Shown: one piece after another, positions 1 to 8,803 of the stretch | How positions within the stretch are numbered: position 1 is the first letter of the stretch | Layout: each line of letters opens with the position of its first letter | Virus record (IMG/VR): IMGVR_UViG_2778261203_000002 | Origin: a virus | Lineage: Duplodnaviria; Heunggongvirae; Uroviricota; Caudoviricetes | DNA length: 8,915 bases | Reading direction: 5' to 3' (one strand) | Translations under genes and position numbers: made by a program | Notes under the pieces: generated by a model | Database searches by the model: none | Told to the model about the DNA's origin: nothing | The model's input: only the letters and a program-made list of their open reading frames with translations

Positions 1-575
1 CCATTCGTGGGACAGTATCCCTGACAGCCTACAAAACGCAATTGAAGAACGCGAGGCATCGTCTTAACGAGGCACCGAGGCGTCGCATTCTTCAGATGGT
101 TCAACCCTTAAGTTAGCGCTTATGGGAGAAATCCCCGCAACCTCTGATGTATTATGCATCCTCAACGCAGCCACAGTTAACCTGATTGGCGGGTTTACTT
201 CATCTGTAAATATTTTTATAAAAATAATGCCCACGCACAGCATAAAACAAAAAGTATTACAGATAAAAAAGGAACGTAATGTACAGATTTGTTGTTTTCC
301 ATATTTACTCACCTTAATATGATTAACCCTGATAGGGCTGTTATTTCAGCGGTTTTCAAATGAGATATTATGGTGATCTGACAAATTTGCATAACATTAA
401 AATTTAATTTGTTTAACCGCTTTTAATAATAAGCGTTGTTTGTATCCCAGCAATCTGTTGTTTGGTTTTTATTCCATTAAGGTGGGGGCTTTACACTGGA
501 ACCAGTTTATTTATACTTTATACGTCAGCCTGAACAACTGGCATCTGCTGCACTGCGCCATCGAGAGATTGAGAA

Positions 576-1175
576 ATGGCGCATATACAACTGGTCAAAC
601 AAACTTCTTCTGGTTTACTTCTCCCGGCGACGCCGGAGAGTTGCGATTTTCTGCATCAAATCAAAATAGGTGAGTGGATACACGCAGACTTTAAGCGTGT
701 GCGTAACTACGCATTCCACAAGCGTTTTTTCAAACTCCTGCAACTGGGATTCGATTACTGGACTCCGGTCGGTGGGGCGATCACGCCTCGCGAACGAGAA
801 CTGCTGTCTGGTTTCGTTGATTACCTGTGCGAATCAGTTGGTCGGGAACACACGCCAGCCCTGAGTGATGCCGCAGAGCAATACCTTAACACCGTTGCGA
901 CTCGTAGAACCCGGGATACGGCGTTGCTAAAGTCGTTTGAGGCTTTCCGCGAGTGGGTAACCATTCAGGCCGGATTTTACACCGAGCATATTTATCCGGA
1001 CGGTAGCCGTGGGCGTCGGGCAAAATCCATCGCTTTTGCGAATATGGACGAAGTCGAGTTTCAGCAGGTTTATAAATCTGTACTGAATGTGCTGTGGAAC
1101 TGGATTCTGTTCCGTAAATTCTCCTCTCAGGAGGAAGTTGAAAATGTGGCCGCACAACTACTGGAGTTTGCGTAA
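576..1175 (+). CDS. Conserved lambdoid nin-region protein (DUF1367-like, YdaW-like by position)
   Basis: 199-aa ORF with ATG at 576 and a protein-like composition. Its TAA stop (1173-1175) overlaps the ATG of the next gene (TAATG), indicating translational coupling. It sits immediately upstream of a YbcO-like gene and a Q-like gene, as in nin regions of E. coli prophages. Family name is from memory of this gene neighbourhood, not from an alignment. Confidence 0.65.
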   Translation: MAHIQLVKQTSSGLLLPATPESCDFLHQIKIGEWIHADFKRVRNYAFHKRFFKLLQLGFDYWTPVGGAITPRERELLSGFVDYLCESVGREHTPALSDAAEQYLNTVATRRTRDTALLKSFEAFREWVTIQAGFYTEHIYPDGSRGRRAKSIAFANMDEVEFQQVYKSVLNVLWNWILFRKFSSQEEVENVAAQLLEFA

Positions 1176-1465
1176 TGGTGAATTTACGTAAAGCGGCTAA
1201 AGGCCAGATGTGCCAGATCAGAATCCCTGGCTACTGCAATCACAATCCCGAAACCTCTGTGCTGGCGCATTACAGGCTGGCGGGGACGTGCGGAACAGCG
1301 ACAAAACCACACGATATGCAGGCGGCGATAGCCTGTAGCTCATGCCACGATCTAATCGACGGGCGGGTAAAAACCAGCGATTACACCAAAGAAGAATTGC
1401 GCCTGATGCATGCTGAAGGGGTTTTTCGCACACAAGAAATCTGGAGAAAGAAAGGTCATTTATGA
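1175..1465 (+). CDS. YbcO-like nin-region protein (DUF1364, putative Cys/His metal-binding nuclease)
   Basis: 96-aa ORF whose translation (MVNLRKAAKGQMCQIRIPGYCNHNPETSVLAHYRLAGTCGTATKPHDMQAAIACSSCHDLIDGR...) closely matches my recollection of E. coli DLP12 YbcO, including the conserved Cys/His spacing. Start overlaps the upstream stop (TAATG); its stop overlaps the next start (ATGA at 1462-1465). Confidence 0.75.
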   Translation: MVNLRKAAKGQMCQIRIPGYCNHNPETSVLAHYRLAGTCGTATKPHDMQAAIACSSCHDLIDGRVKTSDYTKEELRLMHAEGVFRTQEIWRKKGHL

Positions 1466-2004
1466 TTTACCCAACGAATACAGGAAAAAGCGGAGAACAC
1501 CTTCGCCTCACCACGCTGGAAAGTGTCTGGATTCAGGGAAAACTACGTATGTGGGGGCGCTGGTCGTATATTGGCGGTGGCAGGTCAGGGAATATGTTCA
1601 ATCAGTTGTTGGCATCCAAAAAACTGACGAAAACAGCCATTAATGAAGCCCTGCGCAGAATGAAAAAAGCGGGAATAGAGAAAGCTGAGCTGGAAGCGTT
1701 TTTGCGAGAGATGATCAACGGCAAGCAAAAGAGCTGGCTGGCGCATTGTACTGATGCAGAGGCGTTATGTATTGATCGAGTCATAAGTGAGGTGCTGGCA
1801 GAGCATCCAGGATTGATTTGCATTCTCCGGCAACGCTATGAAGGGCGGGGGATGACTAAGCGCAAAATGGCTGAATTGCTAAATGATGCACACCCAGAGT
1901 GGTGTTTTAGCACATGCGAAAAACGGATTGCTAATTGGTTAGCTGTTGCTGAGTATGCCCTATATATTCCCATGCGTGAATCATTTGCTGAGAAAATGGC
2001 TTGA
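1462..2004 (+). CDS. Putative late-gene antiterminator (Q-like)
   Basis: 180-aa ORF, translationally coupled to the upstream gene, occupying the canonical Q position: last gene of the nin module, followed within about 80 bp by a strong intrinsic terminator and then the lysis cassette. It contains Cys pairs (C-x7-C, C-x3-C) compatible with a zinc-binding motif. The Q assignment is by position and general features only; I do not recognise it as lambda Q or phage 82 Q. Confidence 0.55.
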   Translation: MIYPTNTGKSGEHLRLTTLESVWIQGKLRMWGRWSYIGGGRSGNMFNQLLASKKLTKTAINEALRRMKKAGIEKAELEAFLREMINGKQKSWLAHCTDAEALCIDRVISEVLAEHPGLICILRQRYEGRGMTKRKMAELLNDAHPEWCFSTCEKRIANWLAVAEYALYIPMRESFAEKMA

Positions 2005-2084
2005 TTTCTTACGTATAAACTGCTTCAATTTTGCTATGCTTCGCAAAGCTGTATCGCGAGGCGGATTGCAGACATGGACATCGT

Positions 2085-2111
2085 AAAAAAACCGCTTAAT
2101 GCGGTTTTTTT
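2085..2111 (+). terminator. Rho-independent terminator (A-run, 5-bp GC stem ACCGC/GCGGT, loop TTAAT, T-run)
   Basis: Sequence AAAAAAACCGCTTAATGCGGTTTTTTT is seen directly. The stem is flanked by an A-tract upstream and a T-tract downstream, so it could terminate in either direction. It lies just downstream of the Q-like gene, making it a candidate for the Q transcript terminator or tR'. Confidence 0.7.
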
Positions 2112-2132
2112 ACGTCAGGAAAGCAGGGGAGA

Positions 2133-2270
2133 ATGCTGCTAGTTGGGCAACTGGTCTTTCTGCTCCAAATTATAACAGAGACCAGTTATAGTTTCGGTGC
2201 TGTGTTTTTTTTACAATATTGTGATAACACATTGCTGGCGGGAGTTTTGATATTTCTTGGCAGGGGCTGA
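2133..2270 (+). CDS. Hypothetical small hydrophobic protein (45 aa), unverified
   Basis: ATG at 2133 preceded by a purine-rich AGGGGAGA; it translates to MLLVGQLVFLLQIITETSYSFGAVFFLQYCDNTLLAGVLIFLGRG, which has one or two hydrophobic stretches. It lies between two intrinsic terminators. The SD-to-start spacing is short and there is no homology support. Confidence 0.25.
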   Translation: MLLVGQLVFLLQIITETSYSFGAVFFLQYCDNTLLAGVLIFLGRG

Positions 2271-2431
2271 TGATGCGTTATCCTGATGTCGTCAACTCAT
2301 ATAAAATGAGATGAGAGATCATTGCAGGGTGGTTTGTAATTCGCTGTTTAGCGGGACAATATGTTGTCTGATACAAGACACCCGACGCCTCAGATTACTA
2401 TAATAAAGACGAAGCATCCTTTGTATTGACC

Positions 2432-2457
2432 AACCGCCTGTTTAGGCGGTTCTTTTT
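2432..2457 (+). terminator. Rho-independent terminator (7-bp stem AACCGCC/GGCGGTT, loop TGTTTA, then CTTTTTG)
   Basis: Perfect 7-bp inverted repeat followed by a T-run, seen directly. It is the second terminator downstream of the Q-like gene and is an alternative candidate for tR'. Confidence 0.65.
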
Positions 2458-2989
2458 GGGCTGGTTTATTGTATGCCAAATGATTATTAAAAAGGTTGTG
2501 TTAATAACAAAATCCGAAATAATATGCCTGCATATTTTTATCTTGCTTATATTCTGCATATTGTGCATAGCAGGCTCATCCCTGCAATCAAAACTGTATG
2601 ATGAGTATTTTTTGTTTTCCTTTTTTCCAGTCATCTGATGATGACCTGCTTCTTTTTAATCCGGATCGACATCAGTTTTTTAAGATAATTCCTGCGAGTT
2701 ATATGCATAAATACCACAAACTCCGCATTTTATGTGGTTGGGAGTTGCCGGGCGCGCAGTGAGTTTGCTAAGAAAACTCCTGCATGGTGAATCCCCCTGT
2801 GCGGTGGGGTGATACCATTAACCTTTTCTGTCGCCGACAGGTATCACGAACATTTTGTTCACCGGGAGGCACCCGGCACCATGCACTTCAATAGATTCTC
2901 TCCACATTATGGATATTCTTTCAGAATATCCCACGCAGACTTTGTGTAAATGTTAACAAATGTGCGTTTTATTTGATCTGATTCGCTGT

Positions 2990-3019
2990 TTGAGCGTCCA
3001 AAACAACGGTATATATAAT
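2990..3019 (+). promoter_or_regulatory. Putative sigma70 promoter for the lipoprotein cassette (TTGAGC, 18-bp spacer, TATAAT)
   Basis: -35-like TTGAGC at 2990-2995 and a consensus -10 TATAAT at 3014-3019, about 30 bp upstream of the ATG at 3049, which is preceded by a GAGGA Shine-Dalgarno. Pattern match only. Confidence 0.45.
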
Positions 3020-3048
3020 CCTTTACTATATGACATATGTGAGGAAAA

Positions 3049-3477
3049 ATGGGTTTTCGTAGCGCATCAATTCTTACGTTGATTATTAGTGGGATTATTA
3101 TCGGGTGCACTGATGCTGTATCGACAAATTATCATGACCGTACATCATATTACTCCGATAAAGCAATAGAGACACAGTATGTGAGTTCATCTGAACGTAC
3201 TTCTGATGTTAGTGAGGATATCCGTCTGTATGCCCATCAAATCAAGAGCGCCATCGAAAAACAGTTCGGGGATGCGAGTAAGTATTCAGGAAAAGAGTGT
3301 ACACTGAGAATGCATATGGCCCCGAATGGCCTTCTACTGGAGGTTAAAAGAGAAAGTGGAGACCTCGATTTATGTCGTGAAGCGATGAATGCGATAAAGA
3401 ATGCTGATATACCTGCCCCCCCTTCGCCGGAAGTATATAAAGTATTTCAAAATGGGGTGCTGGATTTTAAACCCTGA
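3049..3477 (+). CDS. Lipoprotein with C-terminal TolA domain III-like domain
   Basis: 142-aa ORF with a GAGGA RBS. N-terminus MGFRSASILTLIISGIIIGC has a hydrophobic core and a lipobox (IIGC, Cys20 at nt 3106-3108); Thr at +2 predicts outer-membrane sorting. The C-terminal ~85 residues (YAHQIKSAIEKQFGDASKYSGKECTLRMHMAPNGLLLEVKRESGDLDLCREAMNAIKNADIPAPPSPEVYKVFQNGVLDFKP) align along their whole length with my recollection of the E. coli TolA C-terminal domain, including the two Cys residues and the terminal LDFKP. Identity was not computed. Confidence 0.85.
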   Translation: MGFRSASILTLIISGIIIGCTDAVSTNYHDRTSYYSDKAIETQYVSSSERTSDVSEDIRLYAHQIKSAIEKQFGDASKYSGKECTLRMHMAPNGLLLEVKRESGDLDLCREAMNAIKNADIPAPPSPEVYKVFQNGVLDFKP

Positions 3478-3627
3478 TATTTATTGTTTTGTAATAAACG
3501 GTTTCGGCTTAGGTTTGTTCTGACACAGCTACGGCACTGAGCTAAATTTAGCGGATAGTCAGCTCTGAGCCAGTGGCGGACGTAACAACTACTATTGCTG
3601 AGATTTTAATGGATTGAGGAGCAAGAA

Positions 3628-4023
3628 GTGGGATTAAAGAAAATCGTTATGTTGACTTTTTGGGTCGGTTTTGTTGCGGGATGCACACCTTTACACCCTT
3701 CAGATTGCCACAAAACTACTGCTACAGGTAGTTGCAGTTCAGGACGCTGGGATGATCAGGATGAATGGGGGGCGCAAGCGCGGGGAATCAGAGCTGCAAT
3801 TAATGCCAAACTTGATGAGCCGCATAACTGGAAAGGGAAAAAATGCAGGTTGCATATGGAATTCTCTCAGGATGGCACGGCGTTAAAAATATCTACCAGT
3901 AACGGTGATAAAGCCTATTGCGAAGCGATAAAGTCCGCAGCTCATAAAGCCAAATTTCCGGCCTTCAACAATCCGGAAGTCTACAGAGATTTTCAGAAAT
4001 CTGGCTTTGACATGCGAGGTTAG
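3628..4023 (+). CDS. Lipoprotein, divergent paralogue of the upstream TolA-III-like lipoprotein
   Basis: 131-aa ORF starting at GTG 3628, with GAGGAG 6 nt upstream. Signal peptide MGLKKIVMLTFWVGFVAGC has lipobox VAGC (Cys19, nt 3682-3684) and Thr at +2. The C-terminal region (GKKCRLHMEFSQDGTALKISTSNGDKAYCEAIKSAAHKAKFPAFNNPEVYRDFQ) shares the K-x-C-x-L, D/NG, GD-x-x-x-C and PEVY-x-x-FQ pattern with the upstream paralogue and with TolA domain III. Confidence 0.8.
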   Translation: MGLKKIVMLTFWVGFVAGCTPLHPSDCHKTTATGSCSSGRWDDQDEWGAQARGIRAAINAKLDEPHNWKGKKCRLHMEFSQDGTALKISTSNGDKAYCEAIKSAAHKAKFPAFNNPEVYRDFQKSGFDMRG

Positions 4024-4148
4024 CTCTTCAATTACTATATCTCATTCATAGCAAACTGACAGATTTGATGATGTTCTATATACGAAACCTGTGATGTCAA
4101 GTCTGAGCTAATACAAATAAACATAATATCAGAGAAATACATTTTATT

Positions 4149-4172
4149 AGCTCGCTACGGCGAGCTTTTTAT
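4149..4172 (+). terminator. Rho-independent terminator (7-bp stem AGCTCGC/GCGAGCT, loop TACG, T-run)
   Basis: Perfect inverted repeat followed by TTTTTAT, about 125 bp downstream of the second lipoprotein stop and about 100 bp upstream of the holin start. Confidence 0.7.
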
Positions 4173-4274
4173 ATTGCATCGTCTCCAGCATATATATCAA
4201 TTAAGGCTCTGATTGATGTGTCTGAAAGCCTACACATAATAACTATGCCATCCGTTCCGTGCGGAGGTGAGGCT

Positions 4275-4490
4275 ATGAAATCCATGGACAAAATTTCAAC
4301 AGGCATTGCCTACGGCACCTCCGCAGGCAGTGCTGGCTACTGGTTTTTACAGTTGCTCGATAGAGTAACTCCGTCACAGTGGGCTGCAATCGGTGTGCTG
4401 GGTAGTCTGGTATTTGGCCTGCTGACGTACCTGACAAACCTTTATTTCAAGATTAAAGAAGATAAGCGCAAGGCTGCGAGAGGTGAATAA
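4275..4490 (+). CDS. Phage 21-type class II holin/antiholin (pinholin S21 family), dual-start
   Basis: Translation [71 protein letters not shown] matches phage 21 S as I recall it, with the Met1-Lys2-Ser3-Met4 dual-start motif (antiholin from ATG 4275, holin from ATG 4284). A GGAGGTGA RBS lies at 4264-4271. The track ORF from 4218 is an upstream extension with no support. The TAA stop overlaps the endolysin ATG at 4490. Confidence 0.9.
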
Positions 4491-4987
4491 TGCCTCCATC
4501 ATTACGAAAAGTCGTTGCTGCTGCTATTGGTGGCGGAGCAATTGCTATAGCATCAGTGTTAATCACTGGCCCAAGTGGTAACGATGGTCTGGAAGGTGTC
4601 AGCTACATACCATACAAAGATATTGTTGGTGTATGGACTGTATGTCACGGGCATACAGGAAAAGACATCATGCTCGGTAAAACGTATACCAAAGCAGAAT
4701 GCAAAACACTCTTGAATAAAGACCTTGCCACGGTCGCCAGACAAATTAACCCGTACATCAAAGTCGATATACCGGAAACAACGCGCGGCGCTCTTTACTC
4801 ATTCGTTTACAACGTGGGTGCTGGCAATTTCAGAACATCGACGCTTCTTCGCAAAATAAACCAGGGCGATATCAAAGGCGCATGTGATCAGCTACGTCGC
4901 TGGACATATGCTGGCGGTAAGCAATGGAAAGGTCTCATGACTCGTCGTGAGATTGAGCGTGAAATCTGTTTGTGGGGTCAGCAATGA
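4490..4987 (+). CDS. SAR endolysin (phage 21 R-type lysozyme, glycoside hydrolase family 24)
   Basis: 165-aa ORF. The N-terminal Gly/Ala-rich weakly hydrophobic segment ([20 protein letters not shown]) is typical of a signal-anchor-release domain, followed by a T4-lysozyme-like catalytic region. Near-identical to R21 from memory. Its stop overlaps the Rz start (ATGA at 4984-4987). Confidence 0.92.
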
Positions 4988-5448
4988 ACAGAGTAACCGC
5001 GATTATCTCCGCTCTGGTTATCTGCATCATCGTCTGCCTGTCATGGGCTGTTAATCATTACCGTGATAACGCCATTACCTACAAAGCCCAGCGCGACAAA
5101 AATGCCAGAGAACTGAAGCTGGCGAACGCGGCAATTACTGACATGCAGATGCGTCAGCGTGATGTTGCTGCGCTCGATGCAAAATACACGAAGGAGTTAG
5201 CTGATGCGAAAGCTGAAAATGATGCTCTGCGTGATGATGTTGCCGCTGGTCGTCGTCGGTTGCACATCAAAGCAGTCTGTCAGTCAGTGCGTGAAGCCAC
5301 CACCGCCTCCGGCGTGGATAATGCAGCCTCCTCCCGACTGGCAGACACCGCTGAACGGGATTATTTCACCCTCCGGGAACGACTGGTAATGATGCAGGCC
5401 CAACTTGAAGGTGCTCAGCAATACATAACCGAGCAGTGTTTAAAGTAA
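4984..5448 (+). CDS. Rz inner-membrane spanin (i-spanin)
   Basis: Start taken at ATG 4984 ([55 protein letters not shown]...), which matches lambda-family Rz almost residue for residue from memory: an N-terminal transmembrane helix followed by coiled-coil periplasmic domains. The track ORF from 4972 is an in-frame upstream extension. Confidence 0.9.
5204..5389 (+). CDS. Rz1 outer-membrane lipoprotein spanin (o-spanin), embedded in the +1 frame of Rz
   Basis: 61-aa ORF wholly inside Rz in another frame. It has a lipobox (VVGC) and a proline-rich mature region ([15 protein letters not shown]), matching lambda Rz1 from memory. Confidence 0.85.
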
Positions 5449-5585
5449 AATCTTAACTACAATATGATTCATTTTGATGATTGTTTCATAAGGAACAGTG
5501 AAGTAAGATCTAAGAGGAGTTAAATTTTATACAGTATAATCATAGTATTGCAGCAAGGTGGTTATAATTGAAAGAATATTTAGAT

Positions 5586-7043
5586 ATGAATACATCTCAT
5601 GTAAGAGTTGTTACTCATATGTGTGGGTTCCTGGTTTGGCTCTATAGTCTTTCAATGTTGCCACCAATGGTTGTAGCATTGTTTTATAAAGAAAAAAGCC
5701 TGTTTGTTTTCTTTATAACTTTCGTTATATTTTTTTGCATTGGTGGCGGAGCGTGGTATACAACTAAGAAATCTGGCATTCAATTACGTACCCGTGATGG
5801 GTTTATTATAATTGTAATGTTTTGGATTTTGTTTTCTGTTATTAGTGCATTCCCTTTATGGATTGACTCAGAACTTAATTTAACGTTCATTGATGCTCTG
5901 TTTGAAGGGGTTTCTGGAATAACAACAACAGGAGCAACTGTAATTGATGATGTTAGTTCATTACCTCGGGCATATTTGTACTATCGGTCACAGTTAAATT
6001 TTATAGGTGGTTTAGGAGTTATTGTTCTGGCGGTTGCTGTATTGCCATTATTGGGTATTGGTGGTGCAAAGCTTTATCAGTCAGAAATGCCGGGGCCATT
6101 TAAGGATGACAAACTCACTCCCCGCCTGGCCGATACGTCACGGACACTGTGGATAACTTATTCTTTATTAGGTATTGCTTGTATTGTCTGTTATAGACTT
6201 GCAGGAATGCCTTTGTTTGATGCTATTTGTCACGGGATTTCCACAGTTTCGCTTGGTGGTTTCTCAACTCATAGCGAGAGTATCGGATATTTTAATAACT
6301 ATTTGGTTGAGCTGGTGGCTGGTTCTTTTTCCCTGCTATCGGCTTTCAACTTCACTCTTTGGTATATTGTTATTAGCAGGAAAACGATAAAACCTTTAAT
6401 CAGAGATATTGAACTTCGTTTCTTTCTGTTAATAGCCTTAGGGGTGATCATTGTTACCTCTTTCCAGGTCTGGCATATAGGTATGTATGACTTGCATGGA
6501 AGTTTTATTCATTCGTTTTTTCTTGCCAGCTCCATGCTCACTGATAATGGTTTAGCTACGCAGGATTATGCAAGTTGGCCCACGCACACGATAGTGTTTT
6601 TGCTGTTGTCAAGTTTCTTTGGGGGATGTATAGGTTCAACTTGTGGTGGAATTAAGTCACTTCGATTTCTTATACTTTTCAAACAAAGCAAACACGAGAT
6701 AAATCAGCTTTCTCATCCCAGAGCGTTGTTGAGTGTAAATGTAGGAGGGAAGATAGTTACAGATCGTGTAATGAGGTCTGTATGGAGTTTCTTTTTTCTT
6801 TATACTCTCTTCACGGTGTTTTTTATACTGGTGTTAAATGGTATGGGATATGATTTTCTTACATCATTTGCAACAGTGGCTGCATGTATTAATAATATGG
6901 GATTAGGTTTTGGGGCTACTGCATCGTCATTCGGAGTGCTTAATGACATTGCAAAATGTTTAATGTGCATAGCTATGATTCTTGGTCGCCTTGAAATTTA
7001 TCCTGTTATTATATTGTTTTCAGGTTTTTTTTGGCGCTCCTAA
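5586..7043 (+). CDS. trkG: TrkH/TrkG-family potassium uptake membrane protein (Trk system)
   Basis: Multi-pass hydrophobic protein of about 485 aa from ATG 5586 (MNTSHVRVVTHMCGF...), with repeated Gly-rich selectivity-filter-like segments (GITTTGATV, GIGGAK, SLGGFST, GLGFGA) typical of TrkH/KtrB. The sequence and its position directly after Rz/Rz1 match E. coli trkG of the Rac prophage as I recall it. An alternative TTG start at 5568 has AGGTGG 6 nt upstream. The gene is visibly more AT-rich than the flanking phage genes. Confidence 0.9.
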   Translation: MNTSHVRVVTHMCGFLVWLYSLSMLPPMVVALFYKEKSLFVFFITFVIFFCIGGGAWYTTKKSGIQLRTRDGFIIIVMFWILFSVISAFPLWIDSELNLTFIDALFEGVSGITTTGATVIDDVSSLPRAYLYYRSQLNFIGGLGVIVLAVAVLPLLGIGGAKLYQSEMPGPFKDDKLTPRLADTSRTLWITYSLLGIACIVCYRLAGMPLFDAICHGISTVSLGGFSTHSESIGYFNNYLVELVAGSFSLLSAFNFTLWYIVISRKTIKPLIRDIELRFFLLIALGVIIVTSFQVWHIGMYDLHGSFIHSFFLASSMLTDNGLATQDYASWPTHTIVFLLLSSFFGGCIGSTCGGIKSLRFLILFKQSKHEINQLSHPRALLSVNVGGKIVTDRVMRSVWSFFFLYTLFTVFFILVLNGMGYDFLTSFATVAACINNMGLGFGATASSFGVLNDIAKCLMCIAMILGRLEIYPVIILFSGFFWRS

Positions 7044-7129
7044 TATATGGCTGATTTATAATTGTGAGTTTAATATTATGTTGACTCACTCATTGATCCA
7101 ATACCTAACTTTACCAGCAACACCTCCGT

Positions 7130-7165
7130 CCCCAGTAGCACTGGCTGCTGGGGTGCGTTTTATTC
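7130..7165 (+). terminator. Possible stem-loop/terminator between trkG and the ParB-like gene (CCCCAG, 12-nt loop, CTGGGG, then TGCGTTTTATT)
   Basis: 6-bp GC-rich inverted repeat followed by a T-containing tract, seen directly. The loop is long and the T-run is interrupted, so this is weak. Confidence 0.3.
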
Positions 7166-7180
7166 ATAAAGCAAGGCTGT

Positions 7181-7774
7181 ATGAGCGAGAAATTAAAGAT
7201 AGTCTATCGCCCATTACAAGAATTGTCACCGTATGCGCACAACGCCAGGACGCACAGTACTGAGCAGGTGGCACAACTGGTAGAAAGTATTAAGCAATTC
7301 GGCTGGACTAATCCGGTGCTGATTGACGAAAAGGGCGAAATTATTGCGGGTCACGGTCGTGTTATGGCGGCTGAAATGCTCAAAATGGATTCTGTTCCGG
7401 TCATTGTTCTGTCTGGCCTGACGGATGAGCAGAAAAAGGCGTACCGCCTGGCAGATAATCGCCTGCCGATGAATGCTGGCTGGGATGAAGATCTGTTGCG
7501 GATGGAGCTGTCGGACCTAATCAATGCTGATTTTGATGTCTCCCTGACAGGCTTCATCCCGACAGAAATTGATGAACTGTTGACGGATGTTTTGCCCGGT
7601 ATGATATTCAGATTGCTGGTTATGGGGTTGGCGATAAAAATCAGCAACGCCAGCAGGAATTACTGCGGATTGAACGTGAATATAACAATCAGCGTCTGCA
7701 ACTTGAACGTGACTATGCAGATAAATCCCGTGGGATGTCAAATCATGTTTTTCAGGAGAAAATGCAGGCTCTGA
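7181..7774 (+). CDS. ynaK: ParB-like nuclease-domain protein, probably 3'-disrupted at a deletion junction
   Basis: ATG 7181 with AAGG 4 nt upstream. The N-terminal ~140 aa look like a ParB/sulfiredoxin-type domain, including the GHGRVMAA motif (conserved Gly-x-x-Arg). From about nt 7600 the same DNA also encodes, in another frame, a tape-measure-like coiled coil, so the last ~58 codons of this ORF (LPGMIFRLLVMGLAIKISNASRNY...) are probably not native. The gene symbol is assigned by synteny with trkG in Rac, not by sequence recognition. Confidence 0.6.
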   Translation: MSEKLKIVYRPLQELSPYAHNARTHSTEQVAQLVESIKQFGWTNPVLIDEKGEIIAGHGRVMAAEMLKMDSVPVIVLSGLTDEQKKAYRLADNRLPMNAGWDEDLLRMELSDLINADFDVSLTGFIPTEIDELLTDVLPGMIFRLLVMGLAIKISNASRNYCGLNVNITISVCNLNVTMQINPVGCQIMFFRRKCRL

Positions 7775-8502
7775 ATGATGCTCTGGAACGAGAAAAAGAA
7801 ATTGTCAGACAGAAAAACGAGCAGCTCGATATTCAGGCAGGAGACTGGGTTAGTGGTGCCTCCCAGGGATTCAATAACTGGCTGGATGACACTAAGGATA
7901 TCAGTGAGCAGATAAAATCAACCACGACTCAGATGTTTGATGGAATGACCGATGCGCTGGGTGATTTTGTCACGACAGGCAAGGCAAATTTTCGTTCTTT
8001 CGCTACTTCCGTGATTTCGGATCTTAGTCGAATAGCATTAAAGGCTTCAATTACTGGGATTTTCGACAGCATTAGTAACAGTTCTTCTGGGGGGATTTTA
8101 GGAACTATCGGGAGTGCTATTAGTAAATTTATTCCGAATGCAAAGGGCGGTGTTTATGAGTCTCCGTCATTGAACACGTATTCGAACGGTATTTATGATT
8201 CCCCGCATTTTTTTGCTTTTGCAAGAGGGGCTGGTGTTTTTGGTGAGGCTGGTCCGGAAGCCATTATGCCATTAACACGAACTTCCGATGGTTCTCTTGG
8301 TGTCAGAGCTATTAATAGTAAAAGTGGTAATGGAGGCGGAGATATTACCTATGCCCCTGTATACCAAATCACTATTCAAAATGACGGCCAGAATGGAGAG
8401 ATTGGCCCTCAGGCAATAAAAGCACTTATGGGGATGGTTGATCAGCGGGTGCAGGGCGATCTGTTAAATATGCGACGTGATGGGGGAATGTTAAGTGGCT
8501 AA
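7576..8502 (+). pseudogene. Tail tape-measure protein (lambda gpH-like) C-terminal fragment, 5'-truncated
   Basis: This frame is open from 7576 with no start codon until 7735 and begins mid coiled-coil (DIQIAGYGVGDKNQQRQQELLRIEREYNNQRLQLERDYADKSRG...). It continues with a Gly/Ser-rich C-terminal region and ends directly overlapping a gpM-like gene, reproducing the lambda H-M adjacency. The upstream two-thirds of a tape-measure gene are absent. Confidence 0.65.
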
Positions 8503-8536
8503 TACGGAAGAATTTCACTGGTTACCAGAGGATGGA

Positions 8537-8803
8537 ATGAAAACAGAAAATAAACCATCAATAAAAACTGTAAGATTTGGCGATGGTTATGAGCAACGAA
8601 GTCCAAATGGACTTAATCATTCTCTGCGCGTTTTCACCTGTGATTTCAAAGTTGAGGCGAATGAACGTGATTCATTTGAAAAATTTTTAGCCCGGCATGA
8701 AGGCTATAAATCTTTTTTTTGGCGCCCGCCGGGTATTAACAGAAAAATCAGAGTGGTGTGTCGAACGTGGTCAGCGAGCCGGAGGCGTATACCCATAGTT
8801 TAA
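8537..8803 (+). CDS. Minor tail protein M-like (lambda gpM family), C-terminus possibly altered
   Basis: ATG 8537 with GAGGA upstream (a GTG at 8495 is an alternative start). MKTENKPSIKTVRFGDGYEQRSPNGLNHSLRVFTCDFKVEANERDSFEKFLARHEGYKSFFWRPPGINRKIRVVCRTWSA parallels lambda gpM from memory (VRFGDGY, FLEEHGGWKSFLWTPP, K-V-T-C-A-K-W-S). The last ~9 residues diverge at the point where a tail-fibre-like frame opens. Confidence 0.65.
   Translation: MKTENKPSIKTVRFGDGYEQRSPNGLNHSLRVFTCDFKVEANERDSFEKFLARHEGYKSFFWRPPGINRKIRVVCRTWSASRRRIPIV

Follow-up and report, generated by a model that had tools for sequence, protein, structure and literature searches.

The stretch of DNA analysed in this work (8,915 nucleotides, hereafter the window) carries at positions 4275-5448 an intact, ordinary and previously annotated lysis set of the phage 21 type, comprising a pinholin, a SAR endolysin and the Rz/Rz1 spanins. 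Very probably, these genes form the native cassette, of the phage 21/DLP12 type, of a lambdoid prophage of the Rac family, and they have remained intact because truncation of the prophage around them is a recent event. According to synteny and near-identity, with the integration site lying outside the window, the window is assigned to the late region of a Rac-family prophage of Escherichia coli: positions 102-7601 match the full-length prophage of strain SE11, located at ttcA, with 99.79% identity over 7.5 kb, and positions 5004-7434 match the K-12 Rac prophage with 99.6% identity. Beyond correct annotation the significance of these results is small; they indicate that natural Rac-type prophages carry a full phage 21-type lysis cassette that was lost from K-12, and that the window arose from a prophage of this kind by a recent deletion.

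The four lysis genes

The initial annotation had described a complete phage 21-type S-R-Rz/Rz1 set with intact frames and overlapping start/stop junctions, and all of this was confirmed at exact coordinates, using both the list of open reading frames and the raw sequence. No internal stops occur in the S, R, Rz or Rz1 frames, and minus-strand open reading frames within 4275-5448 are all of 61 aa or less and unremarkable. The four products were placed in the PHROGs category 'lysis', and their Pfam scores, given below for each gene, stand far enough above the gathering cut-offs (26 bits for PF04971, 22.3 for PF00959, 25.4 for PF03245 and 27.9 for PF06085) that, as judged from sequence, the family matches are not due to chance. 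In NCBIfam, S, Rz, Rz1 and the upstream Q-like protein lack specific models, and the only matches were sub-threshold ones to endolysins.

The S gene (4275-4490, + strand) encodes a class II holin, or pinholin, of 71 aa, which matches PF04971 ('Bacteriophage P21 holin S') with 120.9 bits and is identical to the RefSeq EssD protein of SE11. It is preceded by a Shine-Dalgarno-like motif (GGAGGTGAGG) and has a dual start, ATG AAA TCC ATG (M1-K2-S3-M4, 4275-4286), from which S71 begins at 4275 and S68, of 68 aa, at M4 (4284); the same MKSM dual start is annotated likewise in phages 21 and 434. By analogy with phage 21, S71 is predicted to be the antiholin and S68 the pinholin. TMD1 (residues 8-27) is weakly hydrophobic (KD <1.0) with 60% G/A/S/T, and TMD2 (residues 36-56; KD 1.7) keeps G40, S44 and G48 and shows just two changes with respect to S21, L47F and F49L. 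In S21, TMD1 is the releasable domain and TMD2 the one that lines the hole through the small residues G40/S44/G48.

The stop codon of S has one base in common with the start of R (TAATG, 4488-4492), which is also preceded by a Shine-Dalgarno-like motif (GAGAGGTG). R (4490-4987, + strand) encodes a SAR endolysin of 165 aa belonging to the GH24/T4-type lysozymes (PF00959, 154.8 bits), and 162/165 of its residues are identical to those of the crystallized R21 (3HDE), and likewise to those of RrrD of DLP12 (4ZPU). Loss of essential catalytic residues had been named initially as one of the observations that would count against the cassette; conversely, the canonical endolysin motif E-x8-D-x5-T (PMC9239132) is complete, with E35, D44 and T50 all kept. 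The N-terminal SAR segment (residues 8-26) is Gly/Ala-rich, with 58% G/A/S/T, and presents a single difference from that of R21, A8V. Given its near-identity to R21, R would have no signal-peptidase cleavage site.

The next junction is an overlap of four bases between the R stop and the Rz start (ATGA, 4984-4987). Rz (4984-5448, + strand), the i-spanin or inner-membrane subunit, has an ATG start and 154 aa (PF03245, 176.1 bits), with an N-terminal TMD at residues 5-23 (KD 2.6) and both cysteines, C99 and C152, kept; periplasmic coiled-coil segments are suggested by its alignment to the Rz proteins of lambda and P21. An in-frame GTG is present upstream at 4972, and it is not the annotated start. 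Wholly within Rz, in the +1 frame, lies Rz1 (5204-5389, + strand), which encodes the o-spanin lipoprotein, with 61 aa and a PF06085 match of 69.5 bits. Rz1 is preceded by a Shine-Dalgarno-like AAGGAG, displays a VVGC lipobox (C20), C29 and a proline-rich stretch, and is identical to the Rz1 of the Rac-type phage vB_EcoS-683R6. Spanin function requires the homodimer disulfide of either Rz C152 or Rz1 C29 (PMC5295617).

One substitution in Rz deserves closer attention, as it bears on whether the cassette might be a pseudogene-in-waiting, with frames that are open but functionless, either because the spanin is impaired by P117S or because the genes are unexpressible, Q/pR' having been uncoupled by IS421 or a rearrangement. 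We consider this very improbable as a whole. Regarding its first part, residue 117 is a serine in the window and a proline in 7/7 alleles compared from relatives; conversely, the S117 allele also occurs in strain XJ5.2, and the exact Rz protein was found on 130 contigs. Position 117 of lambda Rz falls within the L2 hinge (89-120), where near-saturating selection yielded lysis-defective changes at R91 and L93 alone, and residues 100-115 are replaceable by Ser-Gly repeats (PMC5295617). A hidden defect caused by P117S was therefore rejected as unlikely, since the hinge tolerates mutation and the allele is widespread, and the lambda hinge data suggest that the substitution is tolerated. Moreover, spanins are needed for the final outer-membrane step alone (PMC5295617), so that a defective Rz would leave the holin and the endolysin acting. 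No defect was seen in the coding sequence, and the full-length SE11 prophage encodes exactly the same S and R.

Relatives of the cassette and the truncated prophage

The cassette of phage 21 (OL657228) displays the same gene order, overlapping junctions, MKSM dual start and embedded Rz1, with S, R, Rz and Rz1 of 71/165/153/60 aa in comparison with 71/165/154/61 aa in the window, and the 39 nt located 5' of S are also conserved. The alignment to phage 21, which had been proposed as a check, gave 64/71 identical residues for S, 162/165 for R, 142/154 for Rz and 57/61 for Rz1. At the DNA level S is 80% identical to S21, with 31 synonymous and 7 replacement codons, and thus represents a different allele, whereas R is 98% identical to R21, a contrast that reflects mosaicism. 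In contrast to phage 21, the window has Rac-type C-terminal ends in both spanins, comprising the final ~20 residues of Rz (…EQCLK) and the final 4 of Rz1 (…SGNDW). The flanks differ as well: phage 21 has a Q21-type Q and tRNAs upstream and bor downstream, whereas the window has a DUF1133 Q and TolA-like lipoproteins upstream and trkG downstream.

The DLP12 prophage of K-12 provides the textbook case: its structural genes are lost, and its essD-rrrD(ybcS)-rzpD/rzoD genes likewise form an intact phage 21-type cassette. The RefSeq names of the window proteins follow DLP12 (essD, rrrD, rzoD). These are nonetheless different prophages, with DLP12 sitting at argU and the window-type prophage at ttcA; 4 residues differ in S and 3 in R, the Rz/Rz1 C-termini of DLP12 are of the lambda type, and DLP12 homology starts just 11 bp before the S ATG, so that the promoter region is not common to both.

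Two relatives retain the complete late region. The SE11 prophage, which encodes the same S and R as the window and is 99.8% identical overall, is arranged in the order intR-xisR-recET...DUF1367-YbcO-Q-(two TolA-like genes)-S-R-Rz-trkG-ParB-terminase-head-tail. Phage vB_EcoS-683R6 is 98.9% identical over 4264-7601 (97.6% for the cassette DNA) and has the same Q...S-R-Rz-trkG-ParB-terminase order, also with DUF1367-YbcO upstream, although it carries tRNAs between Q and S where the window has the TolA-like genes. With respect to both, Rz of the window presents a patch of lambda/P21-type substitutions plus S117. In numbers, 8 of the 16 differences between the window and SE11 lie in Rz, and 6 of those 8 fall within 60 bp and are directed toward lambda/P21-type residues. 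Together with the contrast between S and R, this patch reads as the familiar recombinational exchange that takes place among lambdoid lysis modules.

Both SE11 and 683R6 keep the terminase, head and tail genes, of which ~14.5 kb are gone in the window. Downstream of the cassette, 137 bp 3' of Rz, lies the K+ transporter moron trkG (5586-7043, + strand; PF02386, 484 bits), followed by a truncated ParB/ynaK gene (7181-7601, + strand). The latter terminates at a deletion junction with a 4-bp microhomology, GGTA (7598-7601), where it is joined to the C-terminal end (~900 bp) of the tape-measure gene; the loss of ~14.5 kb of terminase, head and tail genes relative to SE11 maps to this junction. The segment that follows (7598-8777, + strand) is a remnant composed of the tape-measure C-terminus and a gpM-like minor tail gene, 98.7% identical to SE11 40048-41227, whose called genes match the Pfam families Tape_meas_lam_C and Phage_min_tail. 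At a second junction, located at ~8777-8785, the gpM-like gene abuts a side-tail-fibre fragment. The collapse of the structural genes described in the initial annotation thus corresponds to the ~14.5 kb head/tail deletion together with this second junction.

The K-12 Rac prophage belongs to the same family and has the Rz-trkG-ynaK segment in common with the window, matching it from position 5004 onward alone. In K-12 Rac a deletion extends from ydaW as far as 20 nt into Rz, so that DUF1367, YbcO, Q, the TolA-like genes, S and R are missing; the rzpR pseudogene, which starts 20 nt into Rz, rzoR and trkG remain. The initial statement that the equivalent region of K-12 Rac is deleted or pseudogenised was therefore correct. 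Full-sized Rac-like prophages have been published (PMC5917428, PMC4632033).

Antitermination and expected expression

The window retains an intact gene for a Q-like late antiterminator of the DUF1133 type (1462-2004, + strand; 180 aa), which matches PF06576 with 356 bits, PF06530 with 26.1 bits, and PHROG 753, 'anti-termination protein Q-like'. This gene is probably the activator of the S-R-Rz cassette. Direct reading of the adjoining sequence (2005-2115, + strand) revealed a Q-proximal conserved block extending to ~2066, and then a hairpin with a T7 run (2084-2115); following the usual pR'-tR' layout, this interval would contain the late promoter pR' and the terminator tR'. The 62-bp block after Q is also conserved in phage 683R6, where a different hairpin and T-run, not homologous to those of the window, follows. 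Neither a consensus scan nor inspection by eye gave a convincing -35/-10 pair for pR' within these conserved 62 bp; the best promoter-like site of the scan (2375-2404), at a distance of 370 bp from Q and with a terminator after it, was not taken as pR'.

Two further terminator-like sites are found between Q and S, one at 2432-2460 and another ~100 bp 5' of S (4149-4172, + strand), the latter being an intrinsic-terminator-like hairpin and T-run with a 7-bp stem that includes 5 GC pairs, followed by TTTTAT. This last hairpin may act as an insulator through which the polymerase has to pass in its Q-modified form. Phages 21 and 683R6 have tRNA genes between Q and S, and none were found there in the window. 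With three terminators between Q and S, expression of S-R-Rz probably requires Q; when Q is absent, the genes should stay off and, consequently, be close to neutral for the host.

Considering the near-identity of these proteins to the characterised ones of phage 21 and lambda, the following course of lysis would be expected (pinholin/SAR endolysin pathway, PMC9239132; spanin genetics, PMC5295617). Late transcription would begin just 3' of the Q-like gene, and would reach S only if Q drives the polymerase through the terminators at ~2084-2115, 2432-2460 and 4149-4172. Both S starts would then be translated, with S71 as antiholin and S68 as pinholin together setting the timing, while R, once exported, would be kept tethered to the inner membrane through its SAR domain, in an inactive state. 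Triggering of S68 would open nanometre-scale holes and depolarise the membrane, whereupon R would be released, refold into an active muramidase (E35/D44/T50) and degrade the cell wall; finally, the Rz/Rz1 complex would fuse the inner and outer membranes.

The second part of the functionless reading concerns whether this course can still be started. The left end of the window (1-138) is the end of an IS421 copy located directly 5' of the DUF1367-YbcO-Q operon, and in the near-identical isolate L010 the sequence beyond IS421 corresponds to entD/fepA, and not to the Rac early genes; in addition, IS elements occur at or near the same position in several other strains. On account of the IS421 end and the L010 flank, prophage induction may no longer reach Q, and expression of the cassette may never occur. 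Against this, Q could come in trans from a lambdoid phage, whether resident or superinfecting. Strains bearing the remnant hold a potentially lethal gene set, which the Q of a co-resident or superinfecting lambdoid phage might fire.

Retention and prevalence of the cassette

Two explanations for an intact cassette next to collapsed structural genes had been put forward initially, namely recent decay and selection for lysis capacity. The first one is favoured. In addition to the 99.8% identity to a full-length prophage and the 4-bp microhomology at the deletion junction, which also speaks for recent decay, an exact search for the ParB-to-tape-measure junction gave 0 matches among 5426 complete E. 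coli genomes, whereas draft assemblies yielded the fused ParB open reading frame (197 aa) in at least 40 index blocks. The draft contigs carrying this fusion, recovered by exact-protein look-up, are short and end in IS421 or tail-fibre repeats. When six draft-genome loci with the same fused frame were compared to the window, a single difference was found in up to 8.9 kb, at the intergenic position 5545, and none in the cassette. Selection for lysis capacity, conversely, found no support, as S and R have been lost independently: K-12 Rac lost them as described above, and L009, which has the same ParB junction as the window, lost both genes by a separate ydaU-to-Rz deletion. These independent losses indicate that the cassette is dispensable. 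Furthermore, among the 1542 trkG-positive complete genomes, 665 had S-R-Rz-trkG and 768 had trkG-to-terminase, so that, as far as these coverage-based, indicative counts go, retention of the cassette does not exceed that of the terminase/structural region. We therefore favour neutral recent decay as the best explanation for the retention of the cassette. Analysis of dN/dS was set aside as uninformative on selection in the remnant lineage, given the 0 cassette substitutions among the isolates that share the deletion.

A more elaborate form of selection would be domestication, in which the host maintains the cassette for peptidoglycan turnover, OMV control, biofilm lysis or cargo release, as proposed for DLP12. 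The S-R-Rz/Rz1 operon of DLP12 is transcribed and affects OMV production and biofilm, its regulators being a Q-like factor, RpoE and Hha (PMC7918800 and references therein), and deletion of rac or DLP12 leads to less lysis in K-12 biofilms (PMC4632033), yet K-12 Rac is devoid of S and R. The cassette is also intact in several Rac remnants that were degraded independently (Z217-2, XJ5.2 and the window lineage). Nevertheless, the losses in K-12 and L009 occurred while trkG was kept, the counts of 665 and 768 show no preference for the cassette, a strong terminator lies 100 bp 5' of S, the promoter region of DLP12 is not shared, and conservation of sequence in so young a remnant carries no information on selection. 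On balance, domestication of the cassette appears improbable. If it were true, this would be the second host-retained lysis module after DLP12.

A related possibility is that selection at the host level keeps the cassette, or at least Rz1 and the 3' part of Rz beside trkG, through envelope remodelling, vesicles or biofilm lysis, or that trkG expression depends on sequences internal to Rz. Among the Rac genes, trkG is the most persistently retained, found in 1542/5426 complete genomes, nearly all at ≥99% identity. Selection of this kind, or such a dependence of trkG, would explain the presence of the cassette in several independently eroded remnants, as well as the fact that both independent S/R deletions stop within the first 60 nt of Rz; even so, we assign it only a slight chance of being correct. 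Under neutral recent decay, the location of the cassette directly 5' of the retained trkG may still add to its survival.

The survival of an intact cassette in a decayed lambdoid prophage is not noteworthy in itself, such cassettes being commonplace: DLP12 is one case (PMC7918800), and S-R-Rz joined to trkG was found in 665/5426 complete E. coli genomes. This is a count of sequence coverage irrespective of frame integrity which, like the other genome counts, is indicative and biased by the large number of laboratory strains derived from K-12 and BL21. By the same measure, positions 4100-5700 gave some match in 5327/5426 of these genomes. The exact S, R and Rz1 proteins were present on at least 1000 contigs each, under the database names 'phage lysis protein EssD', 'lysozyme RrrD', 'lysis protein' and 'prophage lysis lipoprotein RzoD', in agreement with the cassette being already known and annotated (essD/rrrD/rzpD-rzoD). 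Other lambdoid phages could acquire the cassette by recombination. Among phage records, 556 matched the query and 51 covered at least 80% of the cassette; its DNA is 97.5% identical to that of deposited phage genomes (PhiR11_1 and others), whose records give E. coli K-12 or ECOR13 as the host.

Sequence differences in the lysis cassette and its 3' flank

Of the 16 differences between the window and the prophage of strain SE11, over the 7.5 kb compared, half (8) were found within Rz, and 6 of these 8 are packed into 60 bp. The differences within the Rz patch (window 5029-5332) switch residues to the lambda/phage 21 type, and this patch looks like the product of gene conversion from another resident lambdoid cassette. 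In other Rac lineages, the holin and endolysin genes S and R were lost by two independent deletions, one in K-12 and another in the draft isolate L009, with endpoints corresponding to window positions 5004 and 5042, respectively; both endpoints fall in the first 60 nt of Rz, sparing Rz1 and the potassium transporter gene trkG. This shared endpoint zone could be a coincidence, with a chance of roughly 6% by a crude estimate, or it could indicate that Rz1 or trkG relies in some way on sequence internal to Rz.

Further downstream, position 5545 carries a G private to the window, A being present in all 11 relatives compared (SE11, Z217-2, XJ5.2, K-12, phage 683R6 and six draft loci), and this G is the sole mismatch between the window and otherwise identical draft contigs. 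Since the position lies in the Rz-trkG spacer, 5 nt 3' of a TATAAT (5535-5540), it may be within the trkG promoter or leader.

Genes and signals between Q and S

The moron slot between the antiterminator gene Q and S is occupied by two paralogous genes on the plus strand, located at 3049-3477 and 3628 (or 3650)-4023, encoding predicted lipoproteins with lipoboxes IIGC and VAGC, respectively. Both proteins display the TolA C-terminal domain PF06519 (82.6 and 54.6 bits) and were assigned to PHROG 5772, annotated as 'unknown function'; in the Rac remnants of Z217-2 and XJ5.2, one copy is truncated or frameshifted. As a speculation, the TolA-like lipoproteins could serve in the periplasm as decoys of TolA domain III, directed against colicins that depend on Tol or against filamentous phages.

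The ORF-poor interval from Q to the first of these genes harbors a full-length plus-strand match to STnc100 at 2752-2938 (Rfam RF02076; 86.6 bits, gathering score 47, E 5e-18), a known prophage-associated sRNA family. Three predicted plus-strand terminators (hairpin and T-run) were identified between Q and S, at 2084-2115, 2432-2460 and 4149-4172; the second lies about 30 nt 3' of a plus-strand promoter-like site (AAGACA-18-TATAAT, 2375-2404), so that a very short transcript from this site would be possible.

Insertion sequences and the left end of the prophage

IS421, IS3 and IS1 recur across strains, either immediately 5' of the operon DUF1367-YbcO-Q or in the interval separating Q from S, with elements found in the window (IS421, 1-138), SE11 (locus L001, 16666-17843), Z217-2 (L004, 13671-15037) and XJ5.2 (L015, 9222-9919 and 11617-13346). 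The IS421 site is common to the window and Z217-2, in opposite orientations. This recurrence may mark a hot spot for insertion, or it may be a sign that late-gene expression was silenced repeatedly. In the near-identical isolate L010 (contig of GCA_044504725.1), the left-end IS421 is flanked by fepA and entD (1-2821, left of the window-equivalent region) rather than by Rac early genes, which suggests that the prophage of this isolate was split through an IS-mediated rearrangement.
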